The position numbers and the translations under genes are program-made. Positions 373-16,409 of a stretch of DNA of 16,409 bases are shown here, one piece after another. The DNA is from a virus: IMG/VR virus record IMGVR_UViG_3300045988_104897, positions 1-16,409 of that record, one strand, 5' to 3'. Below the pieces are notes generated by a model. It did not search any database and was not told the DNA's origin. It was given only the letters and a program-made list of their open reading frames with translations. Each line of letters begins with the position of its first letter. The stretch's first letter is position 1.

Positions 373-401
373 TAGACATAATCGCCAATGGCTGGTATAT
401 T
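373..401 (+). promoter_or_regulatory. ITR-borne early promoter, left copy: -35 TAGACA, 17-bp spacer, extended -10 TGgTATATT
   Basis: TAGACA at 373-378, TG at 393-394, TATATT at 396-401. SD AAGGAG at 431-436 lies 9 nt upstream of the ATG at 446. Confidence 0.6.
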
Positions 402-445
402 GTAATTGTTCGGAAGGGAACGGAAGATATAAGGAGATTGGGAAG

Positions 446-763: not shown

Positions 764-765
764 TA

Positions 766-876: not shown

Positions 877-1040
877 TAGCGGCGGTATCAATTACCGTAA
901 TTTGCCTCCTGCTAATGGCCCTTGGCTGGTATGTAGGTGGCATTGTAGGCGGCCTAATTTGGTGCGCTGCCCTCCCCTGCGGAATGATCGGAATTGGTTG
1001 GCTGCTAAGCCTGTTAATTAATATAGATGAGTGGTTTTAA
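861..1040 (+). CDS. Small predicted two-pass membrane protein, 59 aa (not in ORF track)
   Basis: Hand translation: MEKQIIAAVSITVICLLLMALGWYVGGIVGGLIWCAALPCGMIGIGWLLSLLINIDEWF. There are two hydrophobic stretches. A GGTGGAG SD-like sequence lies just upstream. The TAA at 1038-1040 abuts the next ATG at 1042. Confidence 0.5.
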   Translation: MEKQIIAAVSITVICLLLMALGWYVGGIVGGLIWCAALPCGMIGIGWLLSLLINIDEWF

Positions 1041-1041
1041 A

Positions 1042-1314
1042 ATGCAGAATGTTTGGAAGCACGCAGAAAGCACGATCTATTTAATTTGTGAATACGTTAA
1101 TAACGGTAATTACGAATTCACCGCAAAACCAGCAGACTTAGACGGCGTAGAAGCCGCAAAAGTGCTAATGAAACTTTCTAAGCATTTGCGAGCCATCGGC
1201 TTAACCGACAGGGCCATTTTTAGAGTAATGCCAAAAATCCTAGCAGAAGCGCCAGGCTGGCGTTTAGCTAATCAAAAGGTTTGGAACTCTAGCGATGATC
1301 GATTGAGGTATTAA
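1042..1314 (+). CDS. Hypothetical early protein, 90 aa
   Basis: ORF-track ORF 1027-1314. I prefer the internal ATG at 1042 (GAGTGG SD-like about 7 nt upstream, 1 nt after the preceding stop). The ATG at 1027 has no SD. Confidence 0.55.
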   Translation: MQNVWKHAESTIYLICEYVNNGNYEFTAKPADLDGVEAAKVLMKLSKHLRAIGLTDRAIFRVMPKILAEAPGWRLANQKVWNSSDDRLRY

Positions 1315-1330
1315 CATGATTACATTACCA

Positions 1331-2371: not shown

Positions 2372-3663
2372 TATAGATAACGCCTAATCCACCAAGTACA
2401 TTTGTTCGATAAATAATTAGATGGGTCGGTTTTCAGCCATGGCCCTTTTGGATGGCTGCCGCCGCCGTGGCCCATGATCTGGCCATTGCCAACGTATAAT
2501 TCAACATGCCCAACACCTGATTCATCCGTTGAACCGCCCCATGATATTAGCACCAAGTCAGCTAATTGCATCTGATTAAACGGAAGATTTTTGCCTTTAC
2601 CATGCGTAATTAGCGTTCCTTTGCTGCTCATGTCACCAGTCCAGGTGCCAACATTAATGCCAGTAATTTGCTTATAAGCCGCGTAGATAGTAGAGCTACA
2701 ATCGCCAACGCCGCTGTTTACTGGATCAAGCCGCCCAGCTCCCTGGCTGTATTGAAATTTGCCTTCCCACGACTTATATAATTCAACAACTTTGCGAGCG
2801 GCATCGCTGCCCGTGTCGTTGCCCTGGTCAGTAGTAGCATTATCGGTGCTGTTGGGGTGTCCATTAACATTTGCAGAAGGCGCCCAAATATTGGGGCCCA
2901 TTTTTTGGCAAGCCAAGCCATTTTCAAAGCCTGAAAGCCCAAAAATAATGAGCTGGTTATTAACTAGTTGGCAATAGCTAACCTGGCTTGCTTGCTGCTC
3001 TGATTGTGTGGGCGAATCCCCTCCCGATTCAACGCCGCCAACCTGCCCGAAGTCAGGCGGCGCACTCTCGCCGTCCCAATCTTTAAGCATGTCATAAGTC
3101 GTGTTATAGCGGTTTTTGTACTTACCCAAAACGCCATTATTCAATACGGTATTACGCATTGTTTCAAGCGTAGCATTACCGCCGCACGCTCTAAGCACCT
3201 GCCCCGCGCTGCGTGGGCTCTGGTGATACATGCAAGCCGCGAATACAAGCGTTTGAGGCCTATCCTGCGATAGTCCGAACTTCTCCAGCGCGGGCACATA
3301 TTCATTTTGGAATTGATCGAACCATTTTTGCTGCTGCGTTTTGTGGTTCGCGTCACGCTTTGCGAACTCAACCCAGGCGTTAGCTTCGCTATCGGTAAGG
3401 TATCGGGAAGTCCACCAATTCCAGCTGTCCCCGTGCGCGTCAACATCTGCATCAAGCTGAGGGGCCGCTGCTTTAAAAGCAGCGTACCCCTCGGGATCGC
3501 CAGTTCGCAACATTTTTAGCAGGTTTGACGCATTTTGCCCGTATTCCTGCATCATGCCAATAGTAATAGGATCGACCCGGTAGACTGCGCCCCAATTGTG
3601 TTCGCTCTCTACCTGCCCAATTACATACATTGCGTAAAGTGATGTGTTCGCAAGGTTTGGCAT
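2371..3663 (-). CDS. Tail-associated peptidoglycan hydrolase: N-terminal lysozyme/transglycosylase-like domain plus C-terminal NlpC/P60 cysteine peptidase (phi29 gp13 position)
   Basis: N-terminal GQVESEHNW (candidate catalytic Glu). C-terminal GDCSSTIYAAY ... GHVELYVG ... MGHGG, a Cys/His/His NlpC-P60 pattern. A Gly/Ser/Gln-rich linker separates them. It sits between the fibre gene and the ATPase. Confidence 0.75.
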   Translation of the reverse strand: MPNLANTSLYAMYVIGQVESEHNWGAVYRVDPITIGMMQEYGQNASNLLKMLRTGDPEGYAAFKAAAPQLDADVDAHGDSWNWWTSRYLTDSEANAWVEFAKRDANHKTQQQKWFDQFQNEYVPALEKFGLSQDRPQTLVFAACMYHQSPRSAGQVLRACGGNATLETMRNTVLNNGVLGKYKNRYNTTYDMLKDWDGESAPPDFGQVGGVESGGDSPTQSEQQASQVSYCQLVNNQLIIFGLSGFENGLACQKMGPNIWAPSANVNGHPNSTDNATTDQGNDTGSDAARKVVELYKSWEGKFQYSQGAGRLDPVNSGVGDCSSTIYAAYKQITGINVGTWTGDMSSKGTLITHGKGKNLPFNQMQLADLVLISWGGSTDESGVGHVELYVGNGQIMGHGGGSHPKGPWLKTDPSNYLSNKCTWWIRRYL

Positions 3664-4442
3664 TACGCGGGATTAATTGGCGTCGGTGCAATTGGCGCCG
3701 GTGCATCGCCAAGGTCGGCGTTTACGTAAAGGCAAGCAGGATATATTTGTAGATAGATTGTGTTTGTCGAGGTTGTAATAGATGTTGCGGTGGTTAGCCC
3801 GAGATATAAATTACCATCACTGCCAACAGCAGCAGATGACTGGCCGATGTGCTCCCAAACGTTTGAAAGCTTATCCCACGCGCCAGGGCCGCCTGCTGAA
3901 ATTTCAAAATATTTTTTAGCGAGCGCACCGCCGCAATCTACCTTGTAACCGTATTTACTATCGCTGCCTGGGATAGCGGATAGATTAAGAGTACCGTCAA
4001 CACAACGGATATACCCGTAGAATTTAAATAGCGTTGAATTAGCGTTAAGCAGTACAGTTATTTGCACGTTTGCATTTCCTGGCTGCGTTTGGTTTGCGAT
4101 TTGCTTAAAATTAAAAAGATTGGCAATAGTGGCGTTTGCATTGCCAGCGTTAGCCAGCGCCGTATTTGCCGTGCCATTTGCAGCAGTGGCGGCAGATTGT
4201 GCAGATGCCGCGGCGGCGTTTGCGGCTTCGGCGGTTCCTTTAGCGGTTTCAGCAGTTTCGGCGGCAGTGTTTGCAGTAGAAGCGGCATTGTTAGCCGTTG
4301 TGCGAATACTTGCAAGATCGCTAGCATTTGCAAACGTTCCCATCGCAGAATCTACTGCCGTAGCAAGGCTATTCATGTCATTTACAATAGAAATAGGTGA
4401 AGCGCCGTTAATCAGCGGAAGATTAAAATTAGGTGTAGGCAT
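3663..4442 (-). CDS. Putative tail fibre / receptor-binding protein, 259 aa
   Basis: N-terminal PNFNLPLINGASPISIVNDMNSLATAVD, a roughly 70-aa Ala/Thr/Asn-rich low-complexity region (candidate coiled-coil stalk), then a beta-rich C-terminal domain. It lies in the tail module, with AAGGAG 8 nt upstream. Confidence 0.55.
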   Translation of the reverse strand: MPTPNFNLPLINGASPISIVNDMNSLATAVDSAMGTFANASDLASIRTTANNAASTANTAAETAETAKGTAEAANAAAASAQSAATAANGTANTALANAGNANATIANLFNFKQIANQTQPGNANVQITVLLNANSTLFKFYGYIRCVDGTLNLSAIPGSDSKYGYKVDCGGALAKKYFEISAGGPGAWDKLSNVWEHIGQSSAAVGSDGNLYLGLTTATSITTSTNTIYLQIYPACLYVNADLGDAPAPIAPTPINPA

Positions 4443-5269
4443 TATAAATTCTCCTTATAACCAAGAACGCCGTTCGCGTCCATTTCACCGTAGGTATTAA
4501 AAATAGTAGGCGAATAATCATAACCCGGTTCAACATCTTTAATTGCACCAGAGGGGGTTATTGCGCAGTTCAAAGCGTCATTAAACATTGAAATAAGCGA
4601 TGCATCTTTCTTAGCCTTTTCGCACGCGTTTTTAATAACGAAACGCCCATAAAAGTCAAGCGAGAAATAGCAAATTTCATCAGTAGTCGCGAATTCAGCC
4701 GTAACCATTCGCCCGTTAGCATCAGGCGCGGGGGCGGGGTAAAGAGTTGCGCCCTCGGTCATTGCGCCATCACGGTTTTCAAAAGAACCATACGTCAGCG
4801 CGTCCAGATCATCATACGTGAGGTATTGCGATGTCTGCGCCGTGCCGTGCGCGGTTGCTTCGCCAATTCCTAAATGGTCAATGTCCGCATAGGTAGCAGC
4901 ATACGGGCGCGCCGCGTCAAAAATTTGACGGAATGCAACCTGGTGATAATCATATGAGCCGGTAACGGGATTATGCACGAGGAACAGACCAGCGGTAATA
5001 TTCTTAATTTGTTCTTGCAGGCGGGAATCTCCAGCTTCCCAACCGCTTCGCAAGCCGTTAATCTGGCCTTGCAAATCATCATCAAGCGCGCTAATAGCTT
5101 TATTCAATTCTTCATCATTAATTCCAGAATCATTTACAGCCATTAGCGCCTGGAGCAGCCAATTTATTTGGTCCTCTAAGCGGATCGCCCTTTTCCAGGA
5201 AGGTGGCAATGGATATTGAAACCCTTTATAAGCAAAGTCTAAACCTGCTAGACCGTCAAATACAGCCAT
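4442..5269 (-). CDS. Structural protein, putative tail/neck appendage component, 275 aa
   Basis: ORF 4442-5290. I prefer the ATG at 5269 (GAGGGA 7 nt upstream, 1 nt after the collar stop). The ATG triplet at 5284-5290 has no SD. Function is inferred from position only. Confidence 0.45.
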   Translation of the reverse strand: MAVFDGLAGLDFAYKGFQYPLPPSWKRAIRLEDQINWLLQALMAVNDSGINDEELNKAISALDDDLQGQINGLRSGWEAGDSRLQEQIKNITAGLFLVHNPVTGSYDYHQVAFRQIFDAARPYAATYADIDHLGIGEATAHGTAQTSQYLTYDDLDALTYGSFENRDGAMTEGATLYPAPAPDANGRMVTAEFATTDEICYFSLDFYGRFVIKNACEKAKKDASLISMFNDALNCAITPSGAIKDVEPGYDYSPTIFNTYGEMDANGVLGYKENL

Positions 5270-5270
5270 A

Positions 5271-5843
5271 TTAAAATCCCTCATCATCATAGAGTTGATT
5301 AAACAATGGCTCTAAGCCATTAAAAACTAGGTATAGTGCATTGTTAACACCAGTGAGCCACTTTGTCAACACTTCGGCGGCTTGCCCCTGCGTTCCTTTA
5401 TGCGTGCTAGTGCTTTTTCCCTGGTCGGTTCCCTGCCCCGTATTATCGGTAAGGTTAGTAGCGTAATCCTTAGCGCCTGACAATTGCGCCTGCGGTGTAG
5501 CGCTGAAAATCTGCCGCGCGCTGCTGTTCGATTCAGACGAACTAATGATCGTATCCTCGGTGCTATATGTCGCCATAATGTCTAACTTTTCATCAGCAAG
5601 AGCGGCAAAAATAGGATTAATTACGGGCATCATCTCGCGCATACGCCTATTTAGATAAGCAACGAATAGTGCCGGGGTATCTTGTGCAATTTTTCTAAAT
5701 TCGAAATGATCATAGATTTTGTTTTGAAGTTCCTCGCGTTCCGATTCATCCCATATAGGGTAAGGCCGCGCCGCGTCCCATAGGTCGTTTCCGTACAAAT
5801 GTACGACATCGCGCAACGTGGGGGTATCGTCTGTTATTAGCAT
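5271..5843 (-). CDS. Putative lower collar / head-tail adaptor protein, 190 aa
   Basis: It lies immediately downstream of the portal, as phi29 gene 11 does. I see no convincing motif match to phi29 gp11. The central region is Ser/Thr/Gln/Gly-rich. Confidence 0.5.
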   Translation of the reverse strand: MLITDDTPTLRDVVHLYGNDLWDAARPYPIWDESEREELQNKIYDHFEFRKIAQDTPALFVAYLNRRMREMMPVINPIFAALADEKLDIMATYSTEDTIISSSESNSSARQIFSATPQAQLSGAKDYATNLTDNTGQGTDQGKSTSTHKGTQGQAAEVLTKWLTGVNNALYLVFNGLEPLFNQLYDDEGF

Positions 5844-5846
5844 TGT

Positions 5847-6830
5847 TTATTCACCATCAATATCTTTATTAGGCATTACTTCAGGAGCTTCGGCTTCGCG
5901 CAAATGCGGGACTGACCACGATACGTCAATAGGAGCGTCAAGGTATTCGGCAAAAACGACGTTTGCAACCTTGCAAAATTCCTTTCGACACTTAAGACGC
6001 GAATTACGCATTAACATAACTTGCTCATTGTTCGATAAAACTTCTTGAGTGTTAACGCGCTCTCGCTTGTCGGTGTTGGCATTGTCAGCACCTAAAAACG
6101 TGATAGCTTCATCTAGTATTCGCTTCTTTGTGTCAAGCAGTTTATCAGCAACAAACGGTGCGCTAGTGTTTAGTACCTCATAGTTTACAATGTCAGTCAT
6201 TCCGCTGTTCTGGCTGATAAACTGCTTATTGTTTTTCAGGTCTTTGATAATGCCCCTTTTAGTTGCCTTTGCTTCTTCTGGCCCTGTAATGATCCAGGGC
6301 GTTTTTTGTGCGCCAACATTAATATCAATTGTTCGGTCAATTGCCGCCAATCGCTTAGCGTAATTATTGATAAAGCCACATAAAGGCGTGCGCATCATAT
6401 TATCGAAAAGCATCACGGCATCGCGTGGCATCACCTCGTTTTCAGCGTTGATCCAAAAATTACAATGTCGCTGCCAATATTGCCCAGCTGGAGAAAACAG
6501 GCTGATTTTATTAGGGTTGTAAAACATGTTCACGTTTTCAGCTGGTGCCGCCTGCGCGAAAAGCACGCCCTCGGACTCGGTAAAAAGCGCGCCCATTCCG
6601 TAATAGAGCATAATATATTCAATTGCACGGGGATCAATTCCAGCGGGGACGTTTTCCCATGTAAATCCAGCAATTGCAATGTTTTCTAGATACGTACGCC
6701 AAAAACGATACTGCAATTGATCATATGCCTGTGTGCTGTCTAGCAGCTCGCGAACGTGCTTTTTGCCTAGCATCAACTCTGATTCATCAATCCAAACGGA
6801 TTGCGCATAGTCTGGTAATGCCGTGCTCAT
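5847..6830 (-). CDS. Portal (upper collar/connector) protein, phi29 gp10-like
   Basis: NVGAQKTPWII (phi29 NQNAQKTPVLI). APFVADKLLDTKKRILDEAITFLGADNANTDKRERVNTQEVLSNNEQ (phi29 [47 protein letters not shown]). Confidence 0.92.
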   Translation of the reverse strand: MSTALPDYAQSVWIDESELMLGKKHVRELLDSTQAYDQLQYRFWRTYLENIAIAGFTWENVPAGIDPRAIEYIMLYYGMGALFTESEGVLFAQAAPAENVNMFYNPNKISLFSPAGQYWQRHCNFWINAENEVMPRDAVMLFDNMMRTPLCGFINNYAKRLAAIDRTIDINVGAQKTPWIITGPEEAKATKRGIIKDLKNNKQFISQNSGMTDIVNYEVLNTSAPFVADKLLDTKKRILDEAITFLGADNANTDKRERVNTQEVLSNNEQVMLMRNSRLKCRKEFCKVANVVFAEYLDAPIDVSWSVPHLREAEAPEVMPNKDIDGE

Positions 6831-8890
6831 TATTTCACCTCTCTATCGTAGCCATAAATTCCTTGTATAGGTGCATTATCAGCGCCATAGGTACGGCCTA
6901 TATCGCCGGGGTTTCGCCACACGGTAACGCCTTTTTCAAAAATGCCGCGAATAGCGTTTTTAACGCCTTCATCAGCAGTAGAGCAGATAATAGACGTATC
7001 GAGCATCTTCCAATATGTGTATTTTTCCATACACATAAAGTCTTTTTGCGGCACCAGATATTGGCGGATCGCATATCCGTATTTCAAAAAGTAATTACCC
7101 ACAATTTCCTGCATCTGGGTAGTAATCGTTTTATAGCGAATCTGCACGATCATCATACCATTTGACAGATTGAAACCGTCTCCAGCCATTTGCCCCGACT
7201 GGCTAGGCTGCGTAAGTGCGGCATCCTGAACCGTTGCATCAATTCCAGCTATGGCGTTCTGATAATCGCCCTTAGCTGACCAGTCTGATAGGTTTTTGTT
7301 CTGATCGGCAAACTGCCCAGCTAGTTGCTGGTTATTTTGGAACTGCAAATTAGATGCTACTAAATTAGTAGCTCCACCAGCAACGCCCATCACAACACCT
7401 GCGGGGTTTCCAGCCATACCGCTAGACAATGCAGACAATCCCATGTTAATGCCCTGCTGTATGTTGCTAATATCCTGGTTAGCCTGGTTATTAGCTAGCT
7501 GTTGTTGTGCCTGGTCATACGTCAATTGATTACCCGCTAAGCTTTTTTGCTGTGACCAGCCGGCGGCGTTATAGCTAAATTGGCGGCGGTTGGTGGTGCT
7601 TGCAAGGTAATTAACATACTCGTCATTGACGATTGACATTTGCGGGAAGTCTTGAAACCAGATTGCCGTATCGAGCCAATACCCATAATTAACTTCATGC
7701 GTTTTCTCGGAATATTGCCCATGGGTGTAGTCCATCGTATAATAGCCAGCTTTTCCGTAACCAGAATCTCCCACCGCTTCACCGTAATGCGCAGGGAAAA
7801 AAGCAATTTTCTGGTATGGCGGTGCAGCGCAAGCCATTTGCTTTAACGTCAATTTTTTATCATTGACCATTTCAGGCTTTAGCAATAAGGAATTACCTTG
7901 GTAATTAACAATTTCAATAACAGCGTAAGGGAAGCATTTTAACTTATCTACGAATTTAAAATCAGCGTTAGTAAGTCTGCCAAGCTGCTCTAGAATTGGC
8001 TCTTCCGAAGTAAAATACACGCCTTCATCGGGCGTATCGCCTAAAAAGTGCGCATCAATGCCATTTAGTGACACGCTTGGGCCATCAGTCAAAACGGTTT
8101 TTGGAAATGCCGAAATTGAAACGATTCCTTTTGCTACCCAAGGAGCGTCACGAACCTTCTTCATGAAATCTAAATAATTCCACGATTCAATTGCATAAAC
8201 ATTGCAGCCGCTTGCTAGACCGTCAGTCATTTGTCCATCAGCGGTTTTTAGCGATGGATTATCGCGAGTGCCCCAATCGGATGCAAGGTCGGTATTGCTT
8301 TGTATGATAACAGCCCATTTTTTGGCGCTCAAATCGAACATTTCAGCGCGCGAAATTGTGTACTCGCTGCCGACGTCCAGCCCTTCGCTTGCAACGCCAA
8401 ATATGCGCATTGTCTCTGCCGCGTTGTATTTGCCCGATTCAAGCCGGTTATGCATTGCAGCCATTGCCAAATGCCCACGCTCAACAAAGCAAACTCCCAA
8501 ACGGAACTGCCATAAATAAGTCTGGAAAACATCGAGCTGCAAAGTAAGCGCCGTAGTGGAAGGGTTCAGCATAGCCGCACCCTCGATAAAGTAGTAAAAG
8601 CGTGGCGGCGTTACGTCGTCGGGATCATCGGTTTTAGGATTATCGACGATTAAATAATTGTAGGTATAAGCCTTGTAGAAAGGCACATCAATATTGATAG
8701 GCTCATTCGGCTTCAAATACGTGTAATTATCTAAAACAATTGATTCACTTTTAAGCGAATCGAAATATTCAGTTCGTTTCTCAGGTGACTCAAAGGACAC
8801 AACATCCTTATATGAATCGTCCCACGCCACCCTGCAAAGGGTGACGCGGGACTGAATCGCCCAACTAAACGGTGTTACGCTAGTTGGCAT
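6830..8890 (-). CDS. Tail knob / distal tail tube protein, phi29 gp9-like
   Basis: LDVFQTYLWQFRLGVCFVERGH (phi29 [22 protein letters not shown]). C-terminal YFLKYGYAIRQ...GIFEKGVTVWRNPGDIG (phi29 FFHKYGYKINR...TIFDNGITLWHTDNIG). I chose the start at ATG 8890 (AAGGAG 10 nt upstream) over the GTG at 8899. Confidence 0.9.
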   Translation of the reverse strand: MPTSVTPFSWAIQSRVTLCRVAWDDSYKDVVSFESPEKRTEYFDSLKSESIVLDNYTYLKPNEPINIDVPFYKAYTYNYLIVDNPKTDDPDDVTPPRFYYFIEGAAMLNPSTTALTLQLDVFQTYLWQFRLGVCFVERGHLAMAAMHNRLESGKYNAAETMRIFGVASEGLDVGSEYTISRAEMFDLSAKKWAVIIQSNTDLASDWGTRDNPSLKTADGQMTDGLASGCNVYAIESWNYLDFMKKVRDAPWVAKGIVSISAFPKTVLTDGPSVSLNGIDAHFLGDTPDEGVYFTSEEPILEQLGRLTNADFKFVDKLKCFPYAVIEIVNYQGNSLLLKPEMVNDKKLTLKQMACAAPPYQKIAFFPAHYGEAVGDSGYGKAGYYTMDYTHGQYSEKTHEVNYGYWLDTAIWFQDFPQMSIVNDEYVNYLASTTNRRQFSYNAAGWSQQKSLAGNQLTYDQAQQQLANNQANQDISNIQQGINMGLSALSSGMAGNPAGVVMGVAGGATNLVASNLQFQNNQQLAGQFADQNKNLSDWSAKGDYQNAIAGIDATVQDAALTQPSQSGQMAGDGFNLSNGMMIVQIRYKTITTQMQEIVGNYFLKYGYAIRQYLVPQKDFMCMEKYTYWKMLDTSIICSTADEGVKNAIRGIFEKGVTVWRNPGDIGRTYGADNAPIQGIYGYDREVK

Positions 8891-8904
8891 GTATAACACT
8901 CTCC

Positions 8905-10287
8905 TTAGGCTTTAGCAGCAAGGACAATATTAGCAGACTTTCTGTTATCGGCATTGGAAATTGCCGTAACTGTGATACCGGTATACTTGCTATTTTCGGA
9001 AACGTGCAAAACTCCCATTCGGTCGATATACGTACCAGTGTCTGGGAGTACAACATTCCAAACACCTATCCTCGCGTCGGCTGCCGTCTGACCAGTGATA
9101 ATAGTATAGGCTCGACCATCGGTAGAAGTATCGGAATAGGTTACCACGGTATCAAGCGCAATTTCTGCACCAGGCTCAATAACCTCGCTTCCTTCAACCG
9201 GATCATGCAAATTAACTTCAACCTTGGTAACCGTGCGAGTAGGTGCCGCCGTGATATTGCTCTCCTCAACCGTAGACAGAAGCAAGGCATTACGCATTGG
9301 CGAAGCAGAGTACACGCCCCAATGGTGATAGTAATAATCAAGGTCAAGCGTTGCAGGATTGTAAATAGAAGCACTCTTAATTTTGGTATCGGTGCACACA
9401 TAAAAATCGCGATCTATTAGAGCAACATCGGTACCGGGGATATTAAAATCATCAATTACGACGGTGCGATCTGCAATAAAGTTTGCTTTATCCATGTTGA
9501 AAGCAGCTGCCAAAACAGAAACATCGAAATTTGCAAAGAAACGCGGCGTACCTGCGAGCACCAGATCATCAGAAGTTACCTGCATACCAGCGTTGTTGTA
9601 CTTGGTATTGTAAAAGTTTTTCATCTGCAAATAATGCTCACGAAGAACTGCCGCAATGGTTTCACCAGCAACGCGCTTTTCATCAACACTAATGCCACCT
9701 GCGAACATGTCAGGAACGCGAATAGTCGCCATTCCCTCGCCGTCATGAACCTTGCGCAAAATATCGCGCATGATCAAATATTCGTCGTTCTCGTCGGACT
9801 GCTGAGGAAGAGCAAGCAAGCCATTGATAAATGCGGAAAGTTGCCCATCCTGAACGAAAGCCTCTTCCAGCATATCCTCATTCAATCGCAAATCGTAACG
9901 GTCACGGCGATTTACGGAATGATAAATGACCTTAACGTCTGGCTTTTCGGCACCAAAAACGTTGGTATCGTTCGGATCATACGCCTTAGCCTTAATGAGG
10001 TTTGCGCCAATTTCCTGAACAACACCGCCATAGGCCATTGCGCCAGTTTTAAATGGCTTCAATCGATTTTCAAATGAATTGGTGCGGAAAAGAGTGAGGC
10101 CGATACGCTGCACAAGCACCTGAATGAATTCATTCCAGAGCAGCGAATTGTCCTGCAAAAGCGCAAGCGTTTTAGTGAGGTTGTTATCGGTAGTCTCGGG
10201 AATTCGCGCGCGGTACTGCTCAGATGCATTGTTTCGCACGGCGTTAATAATTGCGGCATTGTTTGCCGCTACCTTACTAGCTGCCAT
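8905..10287 (-). CDS. Major capsid protein, phi29 gp8-like (HK97 fold) with a C-terminal Ig-like (BIG2-type) domain
   Basis: IINAVRNNASEQYRARIP (phi29 IVNAIRNSQGDNFKSYVP), FIQVLVQRIGLTLFR, DVSVLAAAFNMDKANFIADRTVVIDDF (phi29 [26 protein letters not shown]) and YYYHHWGVYSAS. The C-terminal roughly 110 aa form a beta-rich Ig-like tail. Confidence 0.93.
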   Translation of the reverse strand: MAASKVAANNAAIINAVRNNASEQYRARIPETTDNNLTKTLALLQDNSLLWNEFIQVLVQRIGLTLFRTNSFENRLKPFKTGAMAYGGVVQEIGANLIKAKAYDPNDTNVFGAEKPDVKVIYHSVNRRDRYDLRLNEDMLEEAFVQDGQLSAFINGLLALPQQSDENDEYLIMRDILRKVHDGEGMATIRVPDMFAGGISVDEKRVAGETIAAVLREHYLQMKNFYNTKYNNAGMQVTSDDLVLAGTPRFFANFDVSVLAAAFNMDKANFIADRTVVIDDFNIPGTDVALIDRDFYVCTDTKIKSASIYNPATLDLDYYYHHWGVYSASPMRNALLLSTVEESNITAAPTRTVTKVEVNLHDPVEGSEVIEPGAEIALDTVVTYSDTSTDGRAYTIITGQTAADARIGVWNVVLPDTGTYIDRMGVLHVSENSKYTGITVTAISNADNRKSANIVLAAKA

Positions 10288-10289
10288 AA

Positions 10290-10583
10290 TTAATTCTCCT
10301 TATCTGCAAACAAATCATCAATAGATTTCTCTGCAATTTCTTCCTGCGATTCTTCACCCTCTTCGCCCTCGTCAGCAGCGGGAGCGGTTGCGGCGACCAG
10401 CAATTCATAGTTACGCGCGGCGGTTTCCTGATACTTGCGCTCAGCTTCGTCAAGCTTTTCCTCAAGCTCGGAAAGTCGCGCCTGCATTCCTGCCGAAAGA
10501 TCGGCAACGCCTTGGGATACACCGTTACGCCATTCTGACAAATCATCAATTTCGTCCATTGCCAAAAGCTCATCTAGCGTCAT
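10290..10583 (-). CDS. Scaffolding protein, phi29 gp7-like: 97 aa, acidic, coiled-coil
   Basis: It lies directly upstream of the capsid gene and is Glu/Asp/Leu-rich and helical. Its size matches phi29 gp7 (98 aa). AAGGAGG sits 7 nt upstream of the ATG. Confidence 0.7.
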   Translation of the reverse strand: MTLDELLAMDEIDDLSEWRNGVSQGVADLSAGMQARLSELEEKLDEAERKYQETAARNYELLVAATAPAADEGEEGEESQEEIAEKSIDDLFADKEN

Positions 10584-10597
10584 TGGTTTTCCTCCTT

Positions 10598-10642
10598 AAT
10601 AAAATAACCCCTGGTCTATAGCCTTATAGGCATGACCAGGGG
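10598..10642 (-). terminator. Intrinsic terminator-like hairpin, - strand: CCCCUGGUC...GACCAGGGG followed by UUAUUUUAUU
   Basis: A 9-bp GC-rich stem (10608-10616 with 10634-10642) encloses an inner GCCU/AGGC helix. The U-rich tract at 10598-10607 runs straight into the scaffold SD. Confidence 0.6.
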
Positions 10643-10770
10643 TTTAAAGGTCAAGCGCGGCAATTCCGCGAACGCTGATTAAAAAGCCTTGCACTGCTCG
10701 CTATGTAAGGATACCTCACGGTATTGCATTCCTTAATAACTACTTACCAGCGCAGGGGGTGCGCACGCTT
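10598..10770 (-). ncRNA. Candidate structured RNA of roughly 170 nt (pRNA-like packaging RNA, or leader/attenuator of the late operon)
   Basis: Non-coding gap between endolysin and scaffold. The predicted TSS is near 10770 and the terminator ends near 10600. Stem-loops: 10750-10764 (C5 loop), 10707-10734 (GUGA loop plus outer AAGG/CCUU), 10656-10670 (AAUUG loop) and 10608-10642. Confidence 0.3.
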
Positions 10771-10776
10771 AATTGC

Positions 10777-10805
10777 TTTATAGCACTAACCGAGCAATTT
10801 TGCAA
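10777..10805 (-). promoter_or_regulatory. Candidate promoter, - strand: -35 TTGCAA, 17-bp spacer, extended -10 TGcTATAAA, overlapping the endolysin stop codon
   Basis: The - strand reads TTGCAAaattgctcggttagTGcTATAAA. The -35 is at 10800-10805, TG at 10784-10785 and the -10 at 10777-10782. It has the same extended -10 architecture as the ITR promoter. Confidence 0.5.
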
Positions 10806-11826
10806 ACGTTTTTTTACCCGCGATACCATCAACGCTAAGACCGTGATCGGCCTGGTACTGGCGAACTGCCGAATCGGTGCCGCTGCCAAAGATACCATCA
10901 AAACCGTTAGTATCGTAATTATTACAGATAAGTACACCTTGCAAAACCTTGGTAATGTTTCCTCGCGCTCCCTTGCGAACATTTACGCAGGCCGCGCGCG
11001 TTTTTGGTCCCCAAATGCCATCAACAGCAAGGCCCTTGCCGAACTGTTTATTCAGCTCGCTTTGCAAAACTTTGAGTAAAGCGCGCTTAGTGTTTGGTCC
11101 GTAAATTCCGTCTTGCGCTGATCCCGCCCATGCTTGCACGTTCGCAACATCGCAATTGGCGGGGGCGGTCGGCTTAGGCGTTGGCGTTGGCTCGGGCGTT
11201 ACTGGCGCGCCACTTCCTGCCGCAATCTTTCCCCATGCTTCGCGGTTAAGCTGTGCATAATTGCGATCGGTCGCGCCATTAGACGAGGAATATTGCCAAA
11301 TAGTCCACGTTTTCCACGGGTCTGTACCGTATCTAAAGCTCGGCATATCCCACGAATTGCGGTAATCGGGATAACCAGCCAGCCACAAGCCGCAAGCATC
11401 GGCGCAGTTTGCCGCCTGGCTTCGCCCAGAAGCTTGTACGTAAATCAAGCACCAAACGCCCGTCAATTCGTGGATTTTGTCAACAAAGCGGCGGCACCAG
11501 TTCGAATCTCCCCATGCTTTGTTCTGTATAGATTCCCAATCAAGGCAGGGTATACCATGCCCAAAATACCCTCGGCACTGCACATAGAAAAATTCAGCTT
11601 CTGCAATAGGATCGTTACCGCCTGCATAGTGGTAAAATCCCCACAGTTTGCCGTCAGCTTTGCAGCGGTTAATAATAGCGTCGCACTGCCTATGCACATA
11701 CGTAACGCCTTGCGTTGCTTTTACAATGACAAAATCAGAATCACGGTAGCATGATTCCGTGTTCGCCTTAAATTCCGACCCGTTAAAATTGTCATGGCTC
11801 GATACGTCAATGCCTTTAATCATCAT
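10786..11826 (-). CDS. Endolysin: GH25 muramidase plus C-terminal PG_binding_1 repeats
   Basis: GH25 pattern KGIDVSSHD, FVIVKATQG, GFYHY, LWLAGY. A Pro/Thr linker (PVTPEPTPTPKPT) follows. Then come repeats DGIYGPNTKRAL, VDGIWGPKTRAA, FDGIFGSGTDSAVRQYQ and VDGIAGKKTFAKL. AGGAG sits 7 nt upstream. Confidence 0.9.
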   Translation of the reverse strand: MMIKGIDVSSHDNFNGSEFKANTESCYRDSDFVIVKATQGVTYVHRQCDAIINRCKADGKLWGFYHYAGGNDPIAEAEFFYVQCRGYFGHGIPCLDWESIQNKAWGDSNWCRRFVDKIHELTGVWCLIYVQASGRSQAANCADACGLWLAGYPDYRNSWDMPSFRYGTDPWKTWTIWQYSSSNGATDRNYAQLNREAWGKIAAGSGAPVTPEPTPTPKPTAPANCDVANVQAWAGSAQDGIYGPNTKRALLKVLQSELNKQFGKGLAVDGIWGPKTRAACVNVRKGARGNITKVLQGVLICNNYDTNGFDGIFGSGTDSAVRQYQADHGLSVDGIAGKKTFAKLLG

Positions 11827-12181
11827 TTTTTGACTCCTTTAACTTCAAAAGTGCTGCTAGTGGCGAATCGCTCAATTCGGGCGATAGAGTACACAAATTC
11901 TCAAAAATTGAAATTGCTTCGGTGATAATCACGTACACGCAAACGCCGCCAAAAACCGCACTAAAAGACGTTGGCAAAAGCTCATAATTAACCGCCAATT
12001 GACAACCATAACCAAGCGCCATTGCACCGATAAATCCCGCCTTATGCCATAGACCCAGGCGCATTTTTGTACTGCATAATTCCTTATTTTTGACCGCTTT
12101 AATCACGCCTGATAGATAATCACCCACGATAAAACATAGGCAAAAAACGGCAGCGATTCCGTCACTACCCAAAATATCCAT
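11816..12181 (-). CDS. Holin (phage_holin_4_1 / LL-H type)
   Basis: 121 aa with three hydrophobic segments. The DYLSGVIKAVKNKELCSTKMRLGLWHK motif is typical of this holin family, and the C-terminus is charged. It overlaps the endolysin start by 11 nt. Confidence 0.8.
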   Translation of the reverse strand: MDILGSDGIAAVFCLCFIVGDYLSGVIKAVKNKELCSTKMRLGLWHKAGFIGAMALGYGCQLAVNYELLPTSFSAVFGGVCVYVIITEAISIFENLCTLSPELSDSPLAALLKLKESKNDD

Positions 12182-12190
12182 TCTGTCCTC

Positions 12191-13936
12191 TTATCTAATC
12201 GAAAATGGCCTTGGCACAAGTATAACGCCGCCTTTAACTGCTTGCGGTACGATTTTCCACTTCGATTTATCATGGTAAACCTCGGGCACGTTTTCGCATT
12301 TTTCAAAATCTGTGGTAAATCCAGGGTGAAAATCCTCAATACACATAATCTGTTTAAGCGGATCAACCATTCCCGCACAGGTGTACTCCCATGGTTTGAC
12401 GATCAAATTACCGTTTTTGTCGTGTGTGTACTCTGCTTCTGCGTATGTTTTAGCGCGCAAGCAAACGCAGTCGGCAAAAGCTGCTTCTAAATCCCAATAA
12501 CCTAGTTTTTTAGAATCAATCAAAATATCGCTTGATATTTCTGAACCAATAAAATGAATTGAGTCGGTGTCAGAATAGATAAAGCGATCGCCAAACTTTA
12601 GCGCCGTGCGAATGGTATAATCACGCGCCCAGGCAGTAACAAAAATTCCGACTGGCAAATACACGGGCCTACGCTCGGTTTCCTCCCCCATCACGTAATG
12701 CACAATACCATCAGAATCAAGGCGCGGCACCTTGCCACGTACTTTAATTTTTTGCGCGTATTTTCCATAAGCGTTATTTAACCACAGTTTCCAATTCATG
12801 CGCTCACCGGGGCTTTTAGCGTTCATCTTGCCAACCATGCCAGCATCAACGTATTCCTTGAATAGACCAGTAACGCCGCGAAAATAATACGTATCGCCGT
12901 ACGCTATTACGTCTACCTCGTAGCATTCATTTATCAGTGCCCAATCTACATTGGTAAGCATCATAGTAATAGGATCGTCTATATCGGTTTGGTATTCGCG
13001 ATCGCTAAAAAATAGGCTGCCCTTAACCTGGATACACGGCAATTTGCCGTTTTTCAAATGCGCTGAAAAGGTTATTTCACTGATCCAAAGCGGGTAATTT
13101 TCGCTTTTAATTGGCTTTCCTGGATGCAAAAGCGGCTTACCTACTGGCAAGCATCTATCATGCATAACAAAAGGATAAAGCGAATTTACGTCAATTCGCC
13201 CGCCCTCCCCTAGGTGCTTATTTACATGCGCGGGGTTTGCGTATACGTAACCACCTCGATACGCTTTTCGAAGTATTGAATCTAGCTCGGGGTCAAGCTC
13301 GGGAAACTTAACGCGCCATTGGCGTTTACCGAATAGATCCTTTAGCGCGGCTAAACAGTCTGCGCCAGTGGTTAATTTAGCGCCTAATTCAAAGCGATGA
13401 TCGAGCGCTTTAGCCAGGATCAAAACATCGCGGCGCAAATAGTCCAATTCAAGCGCGGTTAAAATATGCCCTGGCTCACGGTATTCGTTATAGTCTATCT
13501 CGCCTTTAGTCATTGGCAAACCGTAAGCATCCGCAACATTTGCGAGCGTCATAGGCAGTTTTTTATAACTGTCTGCGATTTCAAAAGTAGAACATTCGGT
13601 CGTAATTTGCATATGGTAGAACTTGCCTAAGCTATCCATAAGCAAAGTAAATTCTCCCGCGCCTGGCTCGCGCGCCTCGACGTGTATAAAACCAGTTGTG
13701 AGCAGCCATGAAATAATAAATTTACTATCAAATCCAGCGTTGTGAAACCAATAGCGGCCTGGATGATCGAACGCCCATGCCATAAATGATTCTATGCTAG
13801 TGCCATATTCAAATAGATCATCTGTGTTGGCACCAACTGGGGCAACTCCCCATGCCCATACAGGATTTGCAGCACAACCCTCTGCGCTAGTGTTGGTTTC
13901 AAAATCGGCCGAATATTCAATAACAGGCTTTTTCAT
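12191..13936 (-). CDS. Protein-primed family-B DNA polymerase, phi29 gp2-like
   Basis: ExoI YSADFETNT (phi29 YSCDFETTT), ExoII FHNAGFDSKFIISWL, ExoIII YLRRDVLILAKAL. Motif A DVNSLYPFVM, motif B KLWLNNAYGKYA, motif C YSDTDSIHF, and the C-terminal CAGM. Confidence 0.97.
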   Translation of the reverse strand: MKKPVIEYSADFETNTSAEGCAANPVWAWGVAPVGANTDDLFEYGTSIESFMAWAFDHPGRYWFHNAGFDSKFIISWLLTTGFIHVEAREPGAGEFTLLMDSLGKFYHMQITTECSTFEIADSYKKLPMTLANVADAYGLPMTKGEIDYNEYREPGHILTALELDYLRRDVLILAKALDHRFELGAKLTTGADCLAALKDLFGKRQWRVKFPELDPELDSILRKAYRGGYVYANPAHVNKHLGEGGRIDVNSLYPFVMHDRCLPVGKPLLHPGKPIKSENYPLWISEITFSAHLKNGKLPCIQVKGSLFFSDREYQTDIDDPITMMLTNVDWALINECYEVDVIAYGDTYYFRGVTGLFKEYVDAGMVGKMNAKSPGERMNWKLWLNNAYGKYAQKIKVRGKVPRLDSDGIVHYVMGEETERRPVYLPVGIFVTAWARDYTIRTALKFGDRFIYSDTDSIHFIGSEISSDILIDSKKLGYWDLEAAFADCVCLRAKTYAEAEYTHDKNGNLIVKPWEYTCAGMVDPLKQIMCIEDFHPGFTTDFEKCENVPEVYHDKSKWKIVPQAVKGGVILVPRPFSIR

Positions 13937-14742
13937 TTGCCGATGAATTGCAAAAGTTCTTTTAACGCTGTTTCAGATGCAGTCGATTCACCAGCGCTAG
14001 GGGAGCGATGGCCCTCTTCATACTCTGTTTGATACTGCCATGTATCGACCAATACCCCAAAATCAGTGTAAAAATGAAGGTATGACATTTCATCAGCTGA
14101 CAATTTTGAAAGCCTCTTCAAAAGTGATTCGTCTATATCATTGTCTCTTAGCTTATTAATAACGGCTTGCTTGTATTGCAAAAGCCTATCAGTATCAAGC
14201 GAGGAAGTAAGGCGCGATTTGATTTTCTCGTAGCTTGATTTTGCGCCTGGTTTAAATTCCGTCTCACGAATTACGGGCTTGATAGCGCTAAAACGCCCGT
14301 CGTCTATAGCGTATTCCATCGGCGATTCAATAAAATCAATGTTACGTACTTGCGATTCGGGGATTTTATTTAAAACAGTTTCGCGAATGCTTTTAAGTCG
14401 AGCGGCATTTTCAGCCCGAATAACGTTCAATTCGGCTTCTTCCAAGCGGCGTTGCCATAATTCAGTGCTCATTATGGGCGTTCCCTCGCGCTGAATTACT
14501 ACCTCGATACCTTTGTTAAAGGTATATGCGTTTTCACGGGCGTTAAATTCGCGAAGCTTCTGCGCATACTGGCGTTTTTCAACCGCGCTCATTCCTTTTA
14601 GCTCGGCTGCTGGAATTACTGGATTAAAAGCGGCTGAAATTTGCGCATTAATTGCACCTTTCTTGCGCAAGCGGTATAATTTGTTTCGGGCATTCTTTTG
14701 CAAGCGCGACACTTCTTTGTCTAACTCGGTTCGCTTCTTCAT
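13933..14742 (-). CDS. Terminal protein (replication primer), phi29 gp3-like, 269 aa
   Basis: It lies directly upstream of the polymerase with an ATGA stop/start overlap. The N-terminus is basic: VSRLQKNARNKLYRLRKKG (phi29 YARLVKNTKAKIARTKKKYG). Its size matches phi29 TP (266 aa). I chose the start at ATG 14742 (AGGAGG upstream) over the SD-less ATG at 14781. Confidence 0.75.
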   Translation of the reverse strand: MKKRTELDKEVSRLQKNARNKLYRLRKKGAINAQISAAFNPVIPAAELKGMSAVEKRQYAQKLREFNARENAYTFNKGIEVVIQREGTPIMSTELWQRRLEEAELNVIRAENAARLKSIRETVLNKIPESQVRNIDFIESPMEYAIDDGRFSAIKPVIRETEFKPGAKSSYEKIKSRLTSSLDTDRLLQYKQAVINKLRDNDIDESLLKRLSKLSADEMSYLHFYTDFGVLVDTWQYQTEYEEGHRSPSAGESTASETALKELLQFIGK

Positions 14743-14784
14743 TGCCCCTCCTAATCTCCTGCCCCTCCTAGTGAGGGGCATTCT

Positions 14785-14814
14785 TTTAACAAAAGGGCGG
14801 CATTTCTGCCGCCC
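14785..14814 (-). terminator. Intrinsic terminator after the SSB gene: GGGCGGCA-GAAA-UGCCGCCC followed by UUUUGUU
   Basis: An 8-bp GC stem (14795-14802 with 14807-14814) with a GAAA tetraloop on the - strand transcript. The U-tract is at 14785-14794. It sits between SSB and the terminal protein gene. Confidence 0.75.
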
Positions 14815-14831
14815 TTAAAGTTTACCGCAAT

Positions 14832-15257
14832 TTAGCCGATAAGTTTAAAAGTAAGCATGGATCCAAGACGAACCTTACGGTTAATAATCTCGATCGTTGC
14901 GGGGTTATCCGCATCAATAACGGGGCGAATTGTCTTCAAACGCTGCAACGCCTGGTAAAGGCCAACCGACTGCGCTTCATACGTTGCACCGTCTGCGTCG
15001 GTAATTACAATATGCGGGCGGTTTTCCAGTTCACCAGTAAGCTGGTTTACTGCTTCTATAGGCTCAACAAGCCAGGCAATCATGACAATGGTTTTGCCCG
15101 CAAAGTCCGAAAGCTTGTAATCAGATGCAACACCGGCATTGAAGGCCGCAATCTGGCCTGCTTCGGTAGACAGATCGTAAGATGCAGCAAACCCATAATT
15201 TGCGTTACCGGTAGCAATCTCGGTTACTTCTGCGTTTGCAATCTCCGTGTTTTCCAT
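14832..15257 (-). CDS. Single-stranded DNA-binding protein, phi29 gp5-like
   Basis: MENTEI... (phi29 gp5 MENTNI...), STEAGQIAAFNA (phi29 TLEGQIKIFNA), ITDADGATYEAQS (phi29 IFAADGSLYSAIS) and C-terminal RLGSMLTFKLI (phi29 KGNVFFSLQL). AAGGAG sits 9 nt upstream. Matches are from memory of the gp5 sequence. Confidence 0.65.
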   Translation of the reverse strand: MENTEIANAEVTEIATGNANYGFAASYDLSTEAGQIAAFNAGVASDYKLSDFAGKTIVMIAWLVEPIEAVNQLTGELENRPHIVITDADGATYEAQSVGLYQALQRLKTIRPVIDADNPATIEIINRKVRLGSMLTFKLIG

Positions 15258-15282
15258 TTTTCATTTCTCCTTAATCTTGAAA

Positions 15283-15540
15283 CTAGTCAATTTCCTTGCT
15301 GTCATAGCATTTGGCAGATGAATAGAATTCATCCAACGGCATAACATACACCTTGCTTACCTGCTTGGGGCGCTGAATTGAAATATCTTCACCAAACTCT
15401 TTTGCAGCTAGATTGAAGATACGCGCCATGCCAGCGGCAGCAGGATATTCACGCGTGGCGATCTTTTTACCATTGCGGCAAATGTCGCAAGTGGTAACGT
15501 TTTTAGTACGCCAAACATGTTTAGCCTTGGTTACATGCAA
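15283..15540 (-). CDS. Candidate dsDNA-binding, histone-like early protein (phi29 p6-like), 85 aa, TTG start
   Basis: It lies immediately upstream of SSB, matching phi29 gene order 6-5. It has the strongest SD in the genome (AAGGAGGTGA, 6-nt spacer) before the TTG at 15540. Weak resemblances to p6: RTKNVTTCDI versus TKTTVNVAKM, and KVYVMPLDEFYSSA versus EVYELPVEKFLEVA. Confidence 0.4.
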   Translation of the reverse strand: MHVTKAKHVWRTKNVTTCDICRNGKKIATREYPAAAGMARIFNLAAKEFGEDISIQRPKQVSKVYVMPLDEFYSSAKCYDSKEID

Positions 15541-15749
15541 TTTTGGTCACCTCCTTTTGCTAACTCGGTGCTTTCCAAGTCTTCTATCTCACACGCGAGC
15601 CAGTCTAGCAAATCGCGCATAGAGTCTAAATAGCATCTACCAACGTAGTTAGCGCCGTTATCGGCCTCGACGGCTATTTTGTAACAATGCAGTTCTTTGC
15701 TGTAGTTAACTGATACTGTTATTATTCTTCCAACAGATCGCCTAGACAT
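15531..15749 (-). CDS. Hypothetical early protein, 72 aa
   Basis: GAGGAG sits 8 nt upstream of the ATG at 15749. It overlaps the upstream ORF by 28 nt and the downstream ORF by 10 nt. I recognise no motif. Confidence 0.55.
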   Translation of the reverse strand: MSRRSVGRIITVSVNYSKELHCYKIAVEADNGANYVGRCYLDSMRDLLDWLACEIEDLESTELAKGGDQNCM

Positions 15750-15916
15750 TGTCTATTCTCCTCGGTATCAAACTTTTTGTTAAGTTCGATTAAATCATCA
15801 CTAAAATTAGATAGCTTATAGCAACGTTTTTTCTGGTCATATTCGACATGCTGAAACATAATACGCATCAAGTCATATGTGTATTCATCAACAATCGCGT
15901 TTATTTCTTTAGCCAT
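15722..15916 (-). CDS. Hypothetical acidic early protein, 64 aa, first gene of the right arm
   Basis: ORF 15722-15925. I prefer the ATG at 15916 (weak AGAAGAG SD-like sequence 8 nt upstream) over the GTG at 15925. The protein is rich in Asp/Glu. Confidence 0.5.
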   Translation of the reverse strand: MAKEINAIVDEYTYDLMRIMFQHVEYDQKKRCYKLSNFSDDLIELNKKFDTEENRQCLGDLLEE

Positions 15917-16008
15917 AATTACCACTCTTCTATAAAGCGTACACCGTCAACTTCAATAATGAAGCTTCCCAATCTCCTTATATCTTCCGTTCCCTTCCGA
16001 ACAATTAC

Positions 16009-16037
16009 AATATACCAGCCATTGGCGATTATGTCTA
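16009..16037 (-). promoter_or_regulatory. ITR-borne early promoter, right copy, firing inward on the - strand
   Basis: Exact mirror of 373-401: -10 at 16009-16014 and -35 at 16032-16037. It points into the - strand early operon. Confidence 0.6.
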
Positions 16038-16154
16038 GTGCTTTGGATTAATTTGTTTGGATTTTATTCATTGGCAAATGCTATGTGTTTCAGTTCATTA
16101 TCAGTTCATTATCAGTTCATTAATTTATTGCGCATTAATTTATTGCGTTGGGCT

Positions 16155-16404
16155 GTGCAGTATTTTATTGGGCTGTGGTGGGCAGTAATTTATTGCGCTG
16201 GAGTGGGCAGTATTTTATTGTGCTGGAGTGGACAGTAATTTATTGTGCTGGAGTGGGCAGTAATTTATTGCGCTGGAGTGGACAGTAATTTATTGCGCTG
16301 GAGTGGGCTGGATTTTACTGTGCTGGAGTGTGCTGGATTTTATTGTGCTGGGGCGGGCAGTAATTTATTGCGCTGGAGTGGACAGTAATTTATTGCGCTG
16401 GAGT
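16155..16404. repeat. Mirror copy of the 25-bp tandem array in the right ITR
   Basis: Reverse complement of 6-255, for example ggacagtaatttattgcgctggagt units at the right end. Confidence 0.9.
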
Positions 16405-16409
16405 GGGCT

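Follow-up and report, generated by a model that had tools for sequence, protein, structure and literature searches.

What occupies the only sizeable gap between the genes of an otherwise densely packed phage genome? The question is raised by the 16,409-bp IMG/VR virus record IMGVR_UViG_3300045988_104897 (positions 1 to 16,409; this whole stretch is referred to below as the window), a complete linear phi29-like phage genome bounded by perfect 445-bp inverted terminal repeats (ITRs). According to its open reading frame (ORF) map, the sole sizeable internal non-coding stretch is found at 10584-10785, as had already been pointed out in an initial annotation made from the letters alone. We show here that this gap contains a real, conserved, and structured RNA of ~175 nt on the minus strand. 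The initial annotation had offered two readings, namely, a discrete small RNA resembling the prohead RNA (pRNA) of phi29 and a leader whose terminator keeps the structural genes off. The pRNA idea is partly supported and is the best-supported reading of the locus. Judging from sequence, we give about an even chance to the gap RNA being the counterpart of the phi29 pRNA, made as the leader of the late operon. The broader claim, that it represents the first prohead or packaging RNA outside Bacillus phages, a sequence-unrelated and structurally equivalent class found in uncultured human-gut phi29-like phages and fused to the late operon as its leader, is put forward tentatively, at slightly below even chances.

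A conserved non-coding unit upstream of the scaffold gene

Relatives were gathered by searching with the major capsid protein (MCP) in IMG/VR, metagenome collections (ENA, Logan), GTDB genomes, and a protein collection with contig look-up. This yielded ~45 contigs (MCP identity 47-94%), recovered from metagenomes of the human gut and other assemblies of gut type; compared by the sequence of their elements, they form 13 lineages. In all of these relatives, a non-coding gap of ~130-260 nt directly precedes the scaffold gene. Between the -10 hexamer and the Shine-Dalgarno (SD) sequence, the spacing is kept at ~170-186 nt across lineages, though the sequence in between is mostly unalignable from one lineage to another. 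Between close relatives, the RNA stretch is 87-94% identical and is better conserved than the adjoining 3' end of the endolysin gene. The gap of the window folds at -71.8 kcal/mol, a value that beats 200 of 200 shuffled sequences (z = -3.79). Conserved and covarying structure in relatives, which the initial annotation had proposed as a check, is present across all 13 lineages. A small ORF was also considered as the content of the gap and rejected, as none is common to the relatives and the substitutions in the stems are compensatory.

Secondary structure of the gap RNA

The predicted RNA spans 10598-10776 (~173-179 nt, with limits set by the positions of the promoter and terminator) on the minus strand, as do all of its parts described below. 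In every lineage, the same architecture is encountered in the same order: a first helix (P1), an internal loop, a second helix (P2), a three-way junction, two arms (P3 and P4), the 3' strands of P2 and P1, a linker, and a 3' hairpin. Domain I (~10772-10651) is thus closed by its own 5'/3' pairing through P1 and P2. The 5' strand of P1 (10760-10772; UUAAGCGUG, a bulged C at 10763, and GCA) pairs with 10651-10662 (UGC, then CGCGCUUGA) in the minimum free energy (MFE) fold, and a closing helix with a 1-nt pyrimidine bulge in its 5' strand recurs in all lineages from differing sequences. P2, also in the MFE fold, joins 10743-10753 (GCGCUGGU plus AAG) to 10672-10683 (UUU, a bulged A at 10680, and AUCAGCGU). 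Its AAG/UUU pairing shows A-U, G-U, and G-C variants within lineage A and compensatory changes in lineage C, and the 3' motif UU(G/U)-A is kept in lineages A, B, C, D, and F. The junction dinucleotide UA (10741-10742) is part of a conserved (R)AG-UA-G motif, of which AGUAG is nearly invariant in a MAFFT alignment (A3).

The P3 arm (10700-10740) is composed of an outer helix (GUUAU-UAAGG/CCUUA-C-AUAGC), a 7-nt 5' bulge (AAUGCAA, 10724-10730), an inner helix of 4 bp (UACC/GGUA), a 1-nt 3' bulge, and a GUGA tetraloop (10716-10719). Across lineages, the outer helix varies from 4 to 10 bp and the tetraloop may be GUGA, UUGC, UUAC, GAAA, or UAGC, with the 7-nt 5' bulge, the 4-bp inner helix, and the 1-nt 3' bulge all retained. 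P4 (10684-10699; GAGC-AGUGCAAG-GCUU, with its loop at 10688-10695) is likewise in the MFE fold and corresponds in all lineages to a hairpin of 4-7 bp placed directly after P3. Domain I is followed by a single-stranded linker (CCUUUAA, 10644-10650; unpaired in the MFE fold), by a 3' hairpin resembling both domain II of pRNA and a terminator stem (10607-10643; ACCCCUGGUC...GACCAGGGGU, with an upper GCC/GGC helix), and by a U-tract (UAUUUUAUU, 10598-10606) that abuts the scaffold SD. No lineage lacks the linker, whose length ranges over 6-14 nt, or the long 3' hairpin. When lineages were folded separately, this architecture was the MFE structure, or lay within 0.6 kcal/mol of it, in most of them.

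The fold proposed in the initial annotation, a row of four stem-loops, was thus half right. The strong hairpin followed by a U-tract ahead of the scaffold SD was recovered (10643-10607, then 10606-10598), and the hairpin at 10707-10734, with its AAGG/CCUU outer helix and GUGA tetraloop, shows compensatory changes. The local hairpins drawn at 10750-10764 and 10656-10670 were not retained: their bases belong to P1 and P2 in the MFE fold, a pairing that recurs in every lineage; the former hairpin is broken in contig L009, and the latter has no equivalent in any other lineage. Moreover, P4 (10699-10684) and the three-way junction had been missed. A hammerhead or other ribozyme was discarded since the junction strands do not fit and the Rfam searches were negative. 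An early idea of our own, an AAGCCCC-GGGGCUU pairing in lineages C and D, was superseded by P1, P2, and P4, which explain the same covariation.

Covariation of the helices

Support for these helices comes in the first place from comparisons within lineages, where the alignment is unambiguous. These revealed 23 compensatory pair types, 13 of them in domain I, together with 18 wobble-compatible types and 12 breaks. The P3 arm displays compensatory changes within lineages A, C, and E2, a compensatory change turned an A-U pair of P4 into G-C in L009, L123, and L203, and the 3' hairpin is conserved in structure with many compensatory changes. Cross-lineage alignments made with MAFFT (A2 and A3) were too inaccurate outside the AGUAG and GCC-UUGC-GGC anchors, and segments were therefore aligned by hand and imported with N for gaps (alignment A5). 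In the A5 core, 98.5% of cells are paired, compared with 67.7% in shuffled controls and 33-45% after displacement of the partners; 35 of the 44 pairs vary on both sides, and helices 3-5, those of the P3 arm, are 97-100% paired; as A5 was fitted by hand to the structure, its pairing figures lean towards that structure. G-U or U-G pairs make up 195 of the 1664 paired cells. Given that these would be mismatches on the other strand, the minus strand is the functional one.

Covarying complementarity between the P3 bulge and the P4 loop

Between the 7-nt P3 bulge and the loop of P4, Watson-Crick complementarity extends over 3-6 bp in 13 of 13 lineages. The bulge and loop segments read UGCA/UGCA in the window, GGC/GCC in L010, CAGC/GCUG in lineage C, CGCC/GGCG in L048, GGCA/UGCC in L050, GACAA/UUGUC in E2, and UGC/GCA in L051. 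In these first seven lineages, cognate pairs already outperformed permuted ones (p ~0.002). Contigs L203 and L307-L312 were retrieved later and were parsed with the template already fixed, with L203 and L308-L312 accounting for six of the 13 lineages. Their segments read UUGCGA/UCGCAA (L203), UGCGA/UCGCA (L307), UGC/GCA (L308; UUGC/GCAA if the loop-closing A is counted), GCAU/AUGC (L309), GUCCA/UGGAC (L310), AGUCA/UGACU (L311), and GUCGA/UCGGC (L312). For the 13 lineages taken together, the mean Watson-Crick run was 3.92 for cognate pairs versus 2.35 for non-cognate ones, and the observed sum was reached by 0 of 200,000 permutations, whether runs or duplex energies were scored. We set the segment boundaries with some freedom, a concern that is limited by the out-of-sample lineages. 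The picture is mixed within E2, where the loop is invariant and one of the five pairs is lost to a U in 4 of 13 sequences.

Some lineages present additional pairing options in the same region. In L307, L310, and L311, the MFE structure takes the bulge-loop complementarity as a nested helix at the cost of the P3 outer helix and P4, and this modeling hints at two competing folds of domain I in these contigs. In the E2 lineage, P3 has a 3' strand (GGCUAUUGGUGA) that almost repeats the one on the 5' side of the 3' hairpin (GGGCUAUUGGUA; L053 3585-3600 versus 3660-3672), so it could pair instead with the 3' strand of the hairpin. A weaker analogue is found in lineage A with GCGCUGGU and CCCCUGGUC (window 10746-10753 versus 10634-10642). 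This type of strand repeat is not kept across lineages.

Comparison with the phi29 prohead RNA

The phi29 pRNA is 174 nt long and consists of domain I (117 nt), a linker of 13 nt, and domain II, and members of the pRNA family share ~12% of their sequence around a conserved structure (PMC5066667). Pairing between the CE and D loops is important in this RNA (PMC12670572, PMC5066667). Laid onto phi29, the consensus of the Rfam family RF00044 runs through a bulged A helix, a 1-nt junction strand, the C helix, a 9-nt 5' bulge, a 4-bp E hairpin, the 3' strand of C, UUU, the D hairpin, and the 3' strand of A, and the CE bulge and D loop of phi29 share 4 complementary bases. The order of the elements, their proportions, and the loop-loop complementarity map one-to-one onto the gap RNA. 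Both RNAs are of similar size (~175 nt in the window versus 174 nt in phi29) and comprise a bulged domain I closed by its own 5' and 3' ends, a single-stranded linker, and a 3' hairpin domain. In both, a three-way junction bears two arms, the first interrupted by a large 5' bulge ahead of a 4-bp hairpin and the second a short hairpin, such that the P3 bulge is the counterpart of the CE, or right-hand, loop and the P4 loop that of the D, or left-hand, loop. The covarying complementarity between the bulge and the short-arm loop, a hallmark of pRNA, extends over 3-6 bp here and 4 bp in phi29. The lengths of the arms (~8-10 bp for the P3 outer helix and 4-7 bp for P4, against 9 bp for C and 6 bp for D in phi29) are suggestive only.

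The gap RNA also shares with pRNA a sigma-A-type promoter of its own and a genome that encodes both the gp10 connector and the gp16 ATPase. The presence of these two motor proteins, recognized in the initial annotation, was borne out by Pfam. The packaging ATPase of gp16 type (346 aa; 1331-2371, minus strand) matches PF05894 over residues 10-334 (E = 4.3e-52). The connector of the phi29 gp10 family (5847-6830, minus strand) matches PF05352 (E = 4.8e-43) as well as the portal structures 7pv2 and 1h5w in PDB, and is where the RNA would be expected to dock, should it be a pRNA. PF25622 was matched as well (E = 7.6e-77). We found no other pRNA candidate anywhere in the window, in keeping with the earlier remark that no pRNA-like locus lies near the genome ends.

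The carriers of pRNA (RF00044) are the Bacillus phages phi29, GA-1, DLc1, and their relatives. To our knowledge, no pRNA has been established in relatives infecting Streptococcus, Staphylococcus, Clostridium, or Actinobacteria, nor in gut picoviruses. The literature searched agrees with the initial annotation in confining pRNA to Bacillus relatives of phi29 (PMC11476376, PMC12670572): it is stated to be unique to phi29 and related Bacillus phages (PMC5066667, PMC11476376), and a structure-based search published in 2025 retrieved Bacillus-phage pRNAs only (PMC12670572). A catalogue of structured viral RNAs includes unnamed candidates upstream of Podovirus_gp16 and capsid genes, without a link to pRNA (PMC10690425), and the gap-RNA family may or may not be among them.

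Further differences set the two RNAs apart. The E-like tip is a tetraloop here and a 6-nt loop in phi29, the hosts are uncultured gut bacteria instead of Bacillus, and the gap RNA is an internal late-operon leader, whereas the phi29 pRNA belongs to an early unit at the genome end. The pRNAs of GA-1 and Karezi are internal too (PMC9965433), and genomic place is therefore not a defining trait.

Several results weigh against equating the gap RNA with pRNA. The RF00044 model, which scores phi29 at 145 bits as a positive control, gave no match in the window at its gathering threshold (100 bits), at E <= 5 over the whole window, or at E <= 10 in 10400-11000, and none at E <= 10 in 11 loci of the family. 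Conversely, our own covariance model R1 did not match the phi29 pRNA; R1 is a poor model weakened by N-padding, recovers only lineage E2 at full length, and finds nothing in ~120 more distant phi29-like loci, so that its negatives say little. With no covariance-model link in either direction, homology or common descent with pRNA is not demonstrated. The strands of the junction also differ (UA/0/0 and a bulged A here versus U/UUU/0 in phi29). The connector's N-terminus (MSTALPDYAQSVWIDESELMLGKKHVRELLD) is net acidic, with KKHVR at residues 22-26, and lacks the RKR basic patch by which the N-terminus of phi29 gp10 binds pRNA (cited in PMC9965433). To these must be added the hand fitting of A5, the absence of a U-tract in L010 and L051, the location of the unit directly upstream of the scaffold SD in every lineage, as would be expected of a cis-regulatory element, and the fact that the bulge-loop pairing could be an intramolecular tertiary contact. 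For the discrete pRNA-like RNA of the initial annotation, the RF00044 topology, the covarying bulge-loop pairing, and the motor genes hence stand on one side, and the missing covariance-model link and a fold that was half wrong on the other.

Promoter, transcript limits, and position in the operon

The putative promoter of the unit, TTGCAA-17-TGcTATAAA, was present as described in the initial annotation, with a -35-like hexamer at 10800-10805 and, after a 17-nt spacer, an extended -10 at 10777-10785 that overlaps the endolysin stop (10786-10788), both on the minus strand. The match taken alone is not above chance, given that a generic promoter scan returned 32 sites for 31.3 expected and did not list this one. 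What makes the promoter credible is its constant geometry, as a -10-like hexamer lies at equal distance from helix P1 in all lineages. The TG extension is seen in lineages A, B, and C and in L311, and lineages A, D, E1, E2, and F have TTGCAA, TTGAAT, TTGACA, or TTGCGG at 17 nt on the upstream side of this hexamer. From this arrangement, transcription would start at ~10770-10776 and end within the U-tract. Such a U-tract follows the 3' hairpin in the window, L047, L048, L050, the E2 lineage, and L309-L311, and is weak in L116 and L118; in L010 and L051, which are devoid of it, a discrete RNA would need a processing step.

The scaffold SD (AAGGAGG, 10591-10597, minus strand) and ATG (10581-10583, minus strand) come directly after the unit, and the SD is not sequestered in the RNA fold. 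In lineage C (L116 ~3400-3465) and L312 (148-441), a small gene on the opposite strand begins right upstream of the RNA promoter. Because the upstream gene is divergent in these cases, the RNA promoter must also serve the structural operon, and the RNA is consequently the 5' leader of the late operon. This part of the second reading of the initial annotation, a leader gated by its terminator, is thereby upheld; the gate itself is a possible but not a supported feature: the U-tract is not universal, and no conserved antiterminator pairing was found.

The lysin gene located upstream of the RNA is exchanged among relatives, which carry GH25(+PG_binding_1), Amidase_2(+PG_binding), or Amidase_3+SH3 versions (L307-L312 positions 1-520; window 10786-11826). 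With the lysin exchanged and the RNA unit fixed, the RNA promoter marks a recombination boundary.

Alternative explanations

The main competing explanation, which we consider rather unlikely, is that the RNA leads the late operon and acts only in cis, with the bulge-loop pairing as an intramolecular tertiary contact. The folded RNA could act on the polymerase or on a phage factor so that the terminator in the 3' hairpin and later ones are read through, in the manner of HK022 put or Bacillus EAR, the leader could be gated by a protein antiterminator as in the lambda pR'-6S-tR' arrangement, or the fold could stabilize the mRNA or tune scaffold translation. A leader of this kind would account for the invariant position immediately 5' of the scaffold SD, for a promoter that must drive the structural genes where the upstream gene is divergent (lineage C and L312), and for the terminator-like hairpin and U-tract of the window and most lineages, and it is favored as well by the missing covariance-model link to pRNA and by a connector without the RKR patch. 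However, it would reduce the match to the pRNA topology, loop-loop complementarity included, to a coincidence, and a mere gate would need no three-way junction with conserved tertiary pairing. The SD is free, the missing U-tract in L010 and L051 means that a terminator gate is not family-wide, and no conserved antiterminator pairing was found: where upstream segments resemble the 5' strand of the hairpin, they do so in a lineage-specific way.

Known leaders of these types resemble the gap RNA in part. The late leader of lambda runs from pR' through the 6S RNA to tR' and is read through by Q. This system likewise combines a constitutive-looking promoter, an RNA of ~170-190 nt, and a strong terminator directly before the late genes, and differs in that the 6S RNA is not known to have a conserved elaborate fold or a tertiary pairing that covaries. 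Our analysis, which did not look for a Q-like protein among the small early ORFs, identified neither a Q-like gene nor a qut-like site. HK022 put and Bacillus EAR are structured RNAs that head long operons before terminators, EAR with a tertiary pseudoknot, and put consists of two stem-loops instead of a three-way junction closed by 5'/3' pairing. The gap RNA matches no Rfam 15 model, and thus none of whichever cis-regulatory and antitermination families are covered there: the window gave zero matches of any family at the gathering thresholds, the only sub-threshold similarity was that of the 3' hairpin with the RybB terminator, at 25.5 bits where 40 are required, and permissive thresholds applied to the window and 11 relatives returned nothing beyond this terminator look-alike.

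It is improbable, in our view, that the unit is instead a trans-acting small RNA unrelated to packaging, ended at the 3' hairpin and devoted to another role such as the control of mRNAs from host or phage or the capture of a host protein. A promoter-to-terminator unit of small-RNA size, with a strongly conserved structure and a conserved single-stranded junction motif (AGUAG), would suit such a role. Nevertheless, the exposed loops vary between lineages and covary mutually, unlike a sequence that recognizes a shared target, no target complementarity was identified, and the pRNA-like topology would be left unexplained. Finally, the gap could be devoid of any function of its own, a mere succession of promoter, spacer, and terminator whose structure arises by chance or as an artifact of hand alignment. 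Generic scans did find promoter-like and terminator-like matches to be as frequent in shuffled sequence, and the cross-lineage alignment was fitted to the structure. Yet we regard this explanation as highly improbable in view of a gap that is more conserved than the flanking endolysin 3' end and constant in length despite sequence turnover, of compensatory changes within unambiguously aligned lineages, of an architecture recovered independently by MFE folding in diverged lineages, and of a bulge-loop complementarity that held out of sample.

Proposed role of the gap RNA

If the gap RNA is the counterpart of the phi29 pRNA, its transcription would be initiated at the extended -10 promoter overlapping the endolysin stop codon. 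In the window phage, the 3' hairpin (domain II) would double as an intrinsic terminator that frees the RNA, and in lineages without a U-tract the RNA may be freed by processing at the same hairpin. Read-through past the hairpin would yield the late mRNA, and the supply of motor RNA would thus be coupled to that of the structural proteins. Pairing of the P3 bulge of one molecule with the P4 loop of another could then build an RNA ring on the prohead connector, with the closing helix P1/P2 presumably docking the gp16 ATPase for DNA packaging.

A pRNA in these phages would imply that an RNA adaptor is an ancestral and general feature of motors of the gp16/gp10 type and not an oddity of Bacillus phages, and that a single transcription unit supplies both the packaging-motor RNA and the structural proteins. 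The candidate also opens to direct test the manner in which the short gp16 ATPase is docked on the portal of the many other phi29-like phages. The family offers 13 natural kissing-loop variants for swap experiments and a second, independent three-way-junction scaffold for RNA nanotechnology, and its topology combined with loop-loop covariation provides a search template for other clades. Should the RNA act in cis as a leader instead, it would define a new class of structured late-operon leader in phages.

Genome context and other observations

The structural operon lies on the minus strand and begins with the gene of a 97-aa scaffold-like protein (10290-10583), downstream of which are found the MCP (Phi29_MCP, 8905-10287), the gp9 tail knob (6830-8899), the connector, and gp16. 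Upstream of the gap, also on the minus strand, are an endolysin of the GH25 + PG_binding_1 type (10786-11826; stop TAG 10788-10786), a holin (11816-12181), and a protein-primed type B DNA polymerase (12191-13936). Three small plus-strand ORFs at the left end (446-763, 842/861-1040, and 1027-1314) converge on the end of the gp16 gene (1331). A megablast search of GenBank phages with the whole genome gave no match, and the cultured phages with the closest MCP reach only 28-36% identity by tblastn.

Distant relatives (L012-L044 and L138-L142; 23-39% MCP identity) have other gene orders or leader folds, and the element was not demonstrable in these phi29-like contigs. At 33-39% MCP identity, other structured regions were observed upstream of the scaffold gene in L138, L141, and L142 (~2466-2646), L139 (156-300), and L140 (217-382). 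L138 and L141 carry a separate extended -10 promoter only ~45 nt from the scaffold start, and L140 combines an ACAGUAG motif with a bulged hairpin.

Bacteroidaceae were considered as hosts on the basis of the sole GTDB match and set aside, as this match is the L203 phage contig binned into a Bacteroidaceae metagenome-assembled genome, which is not host evidence. In the same contig, the MCP gene is split by a frameshift (2992-3315 and 3320-4351), probably as a result of an assembly error.

The ITRs of the window (1-445 and 15965-16409) are far longer and more repetitive than that of phi29, which measures 6 bp (PMC11476376). They harbor the genome's best matches to a promoter (TAGACA-17-TATATT with TG; 373-401 on the plus strand and 16037-16009 on the minus strand), which are directed inward and are probably early promoters at both genome ends. 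Their contents include a 25-bp unit repeated 11 times (2-278) and three copies of TAATGAACTGA (288-320).

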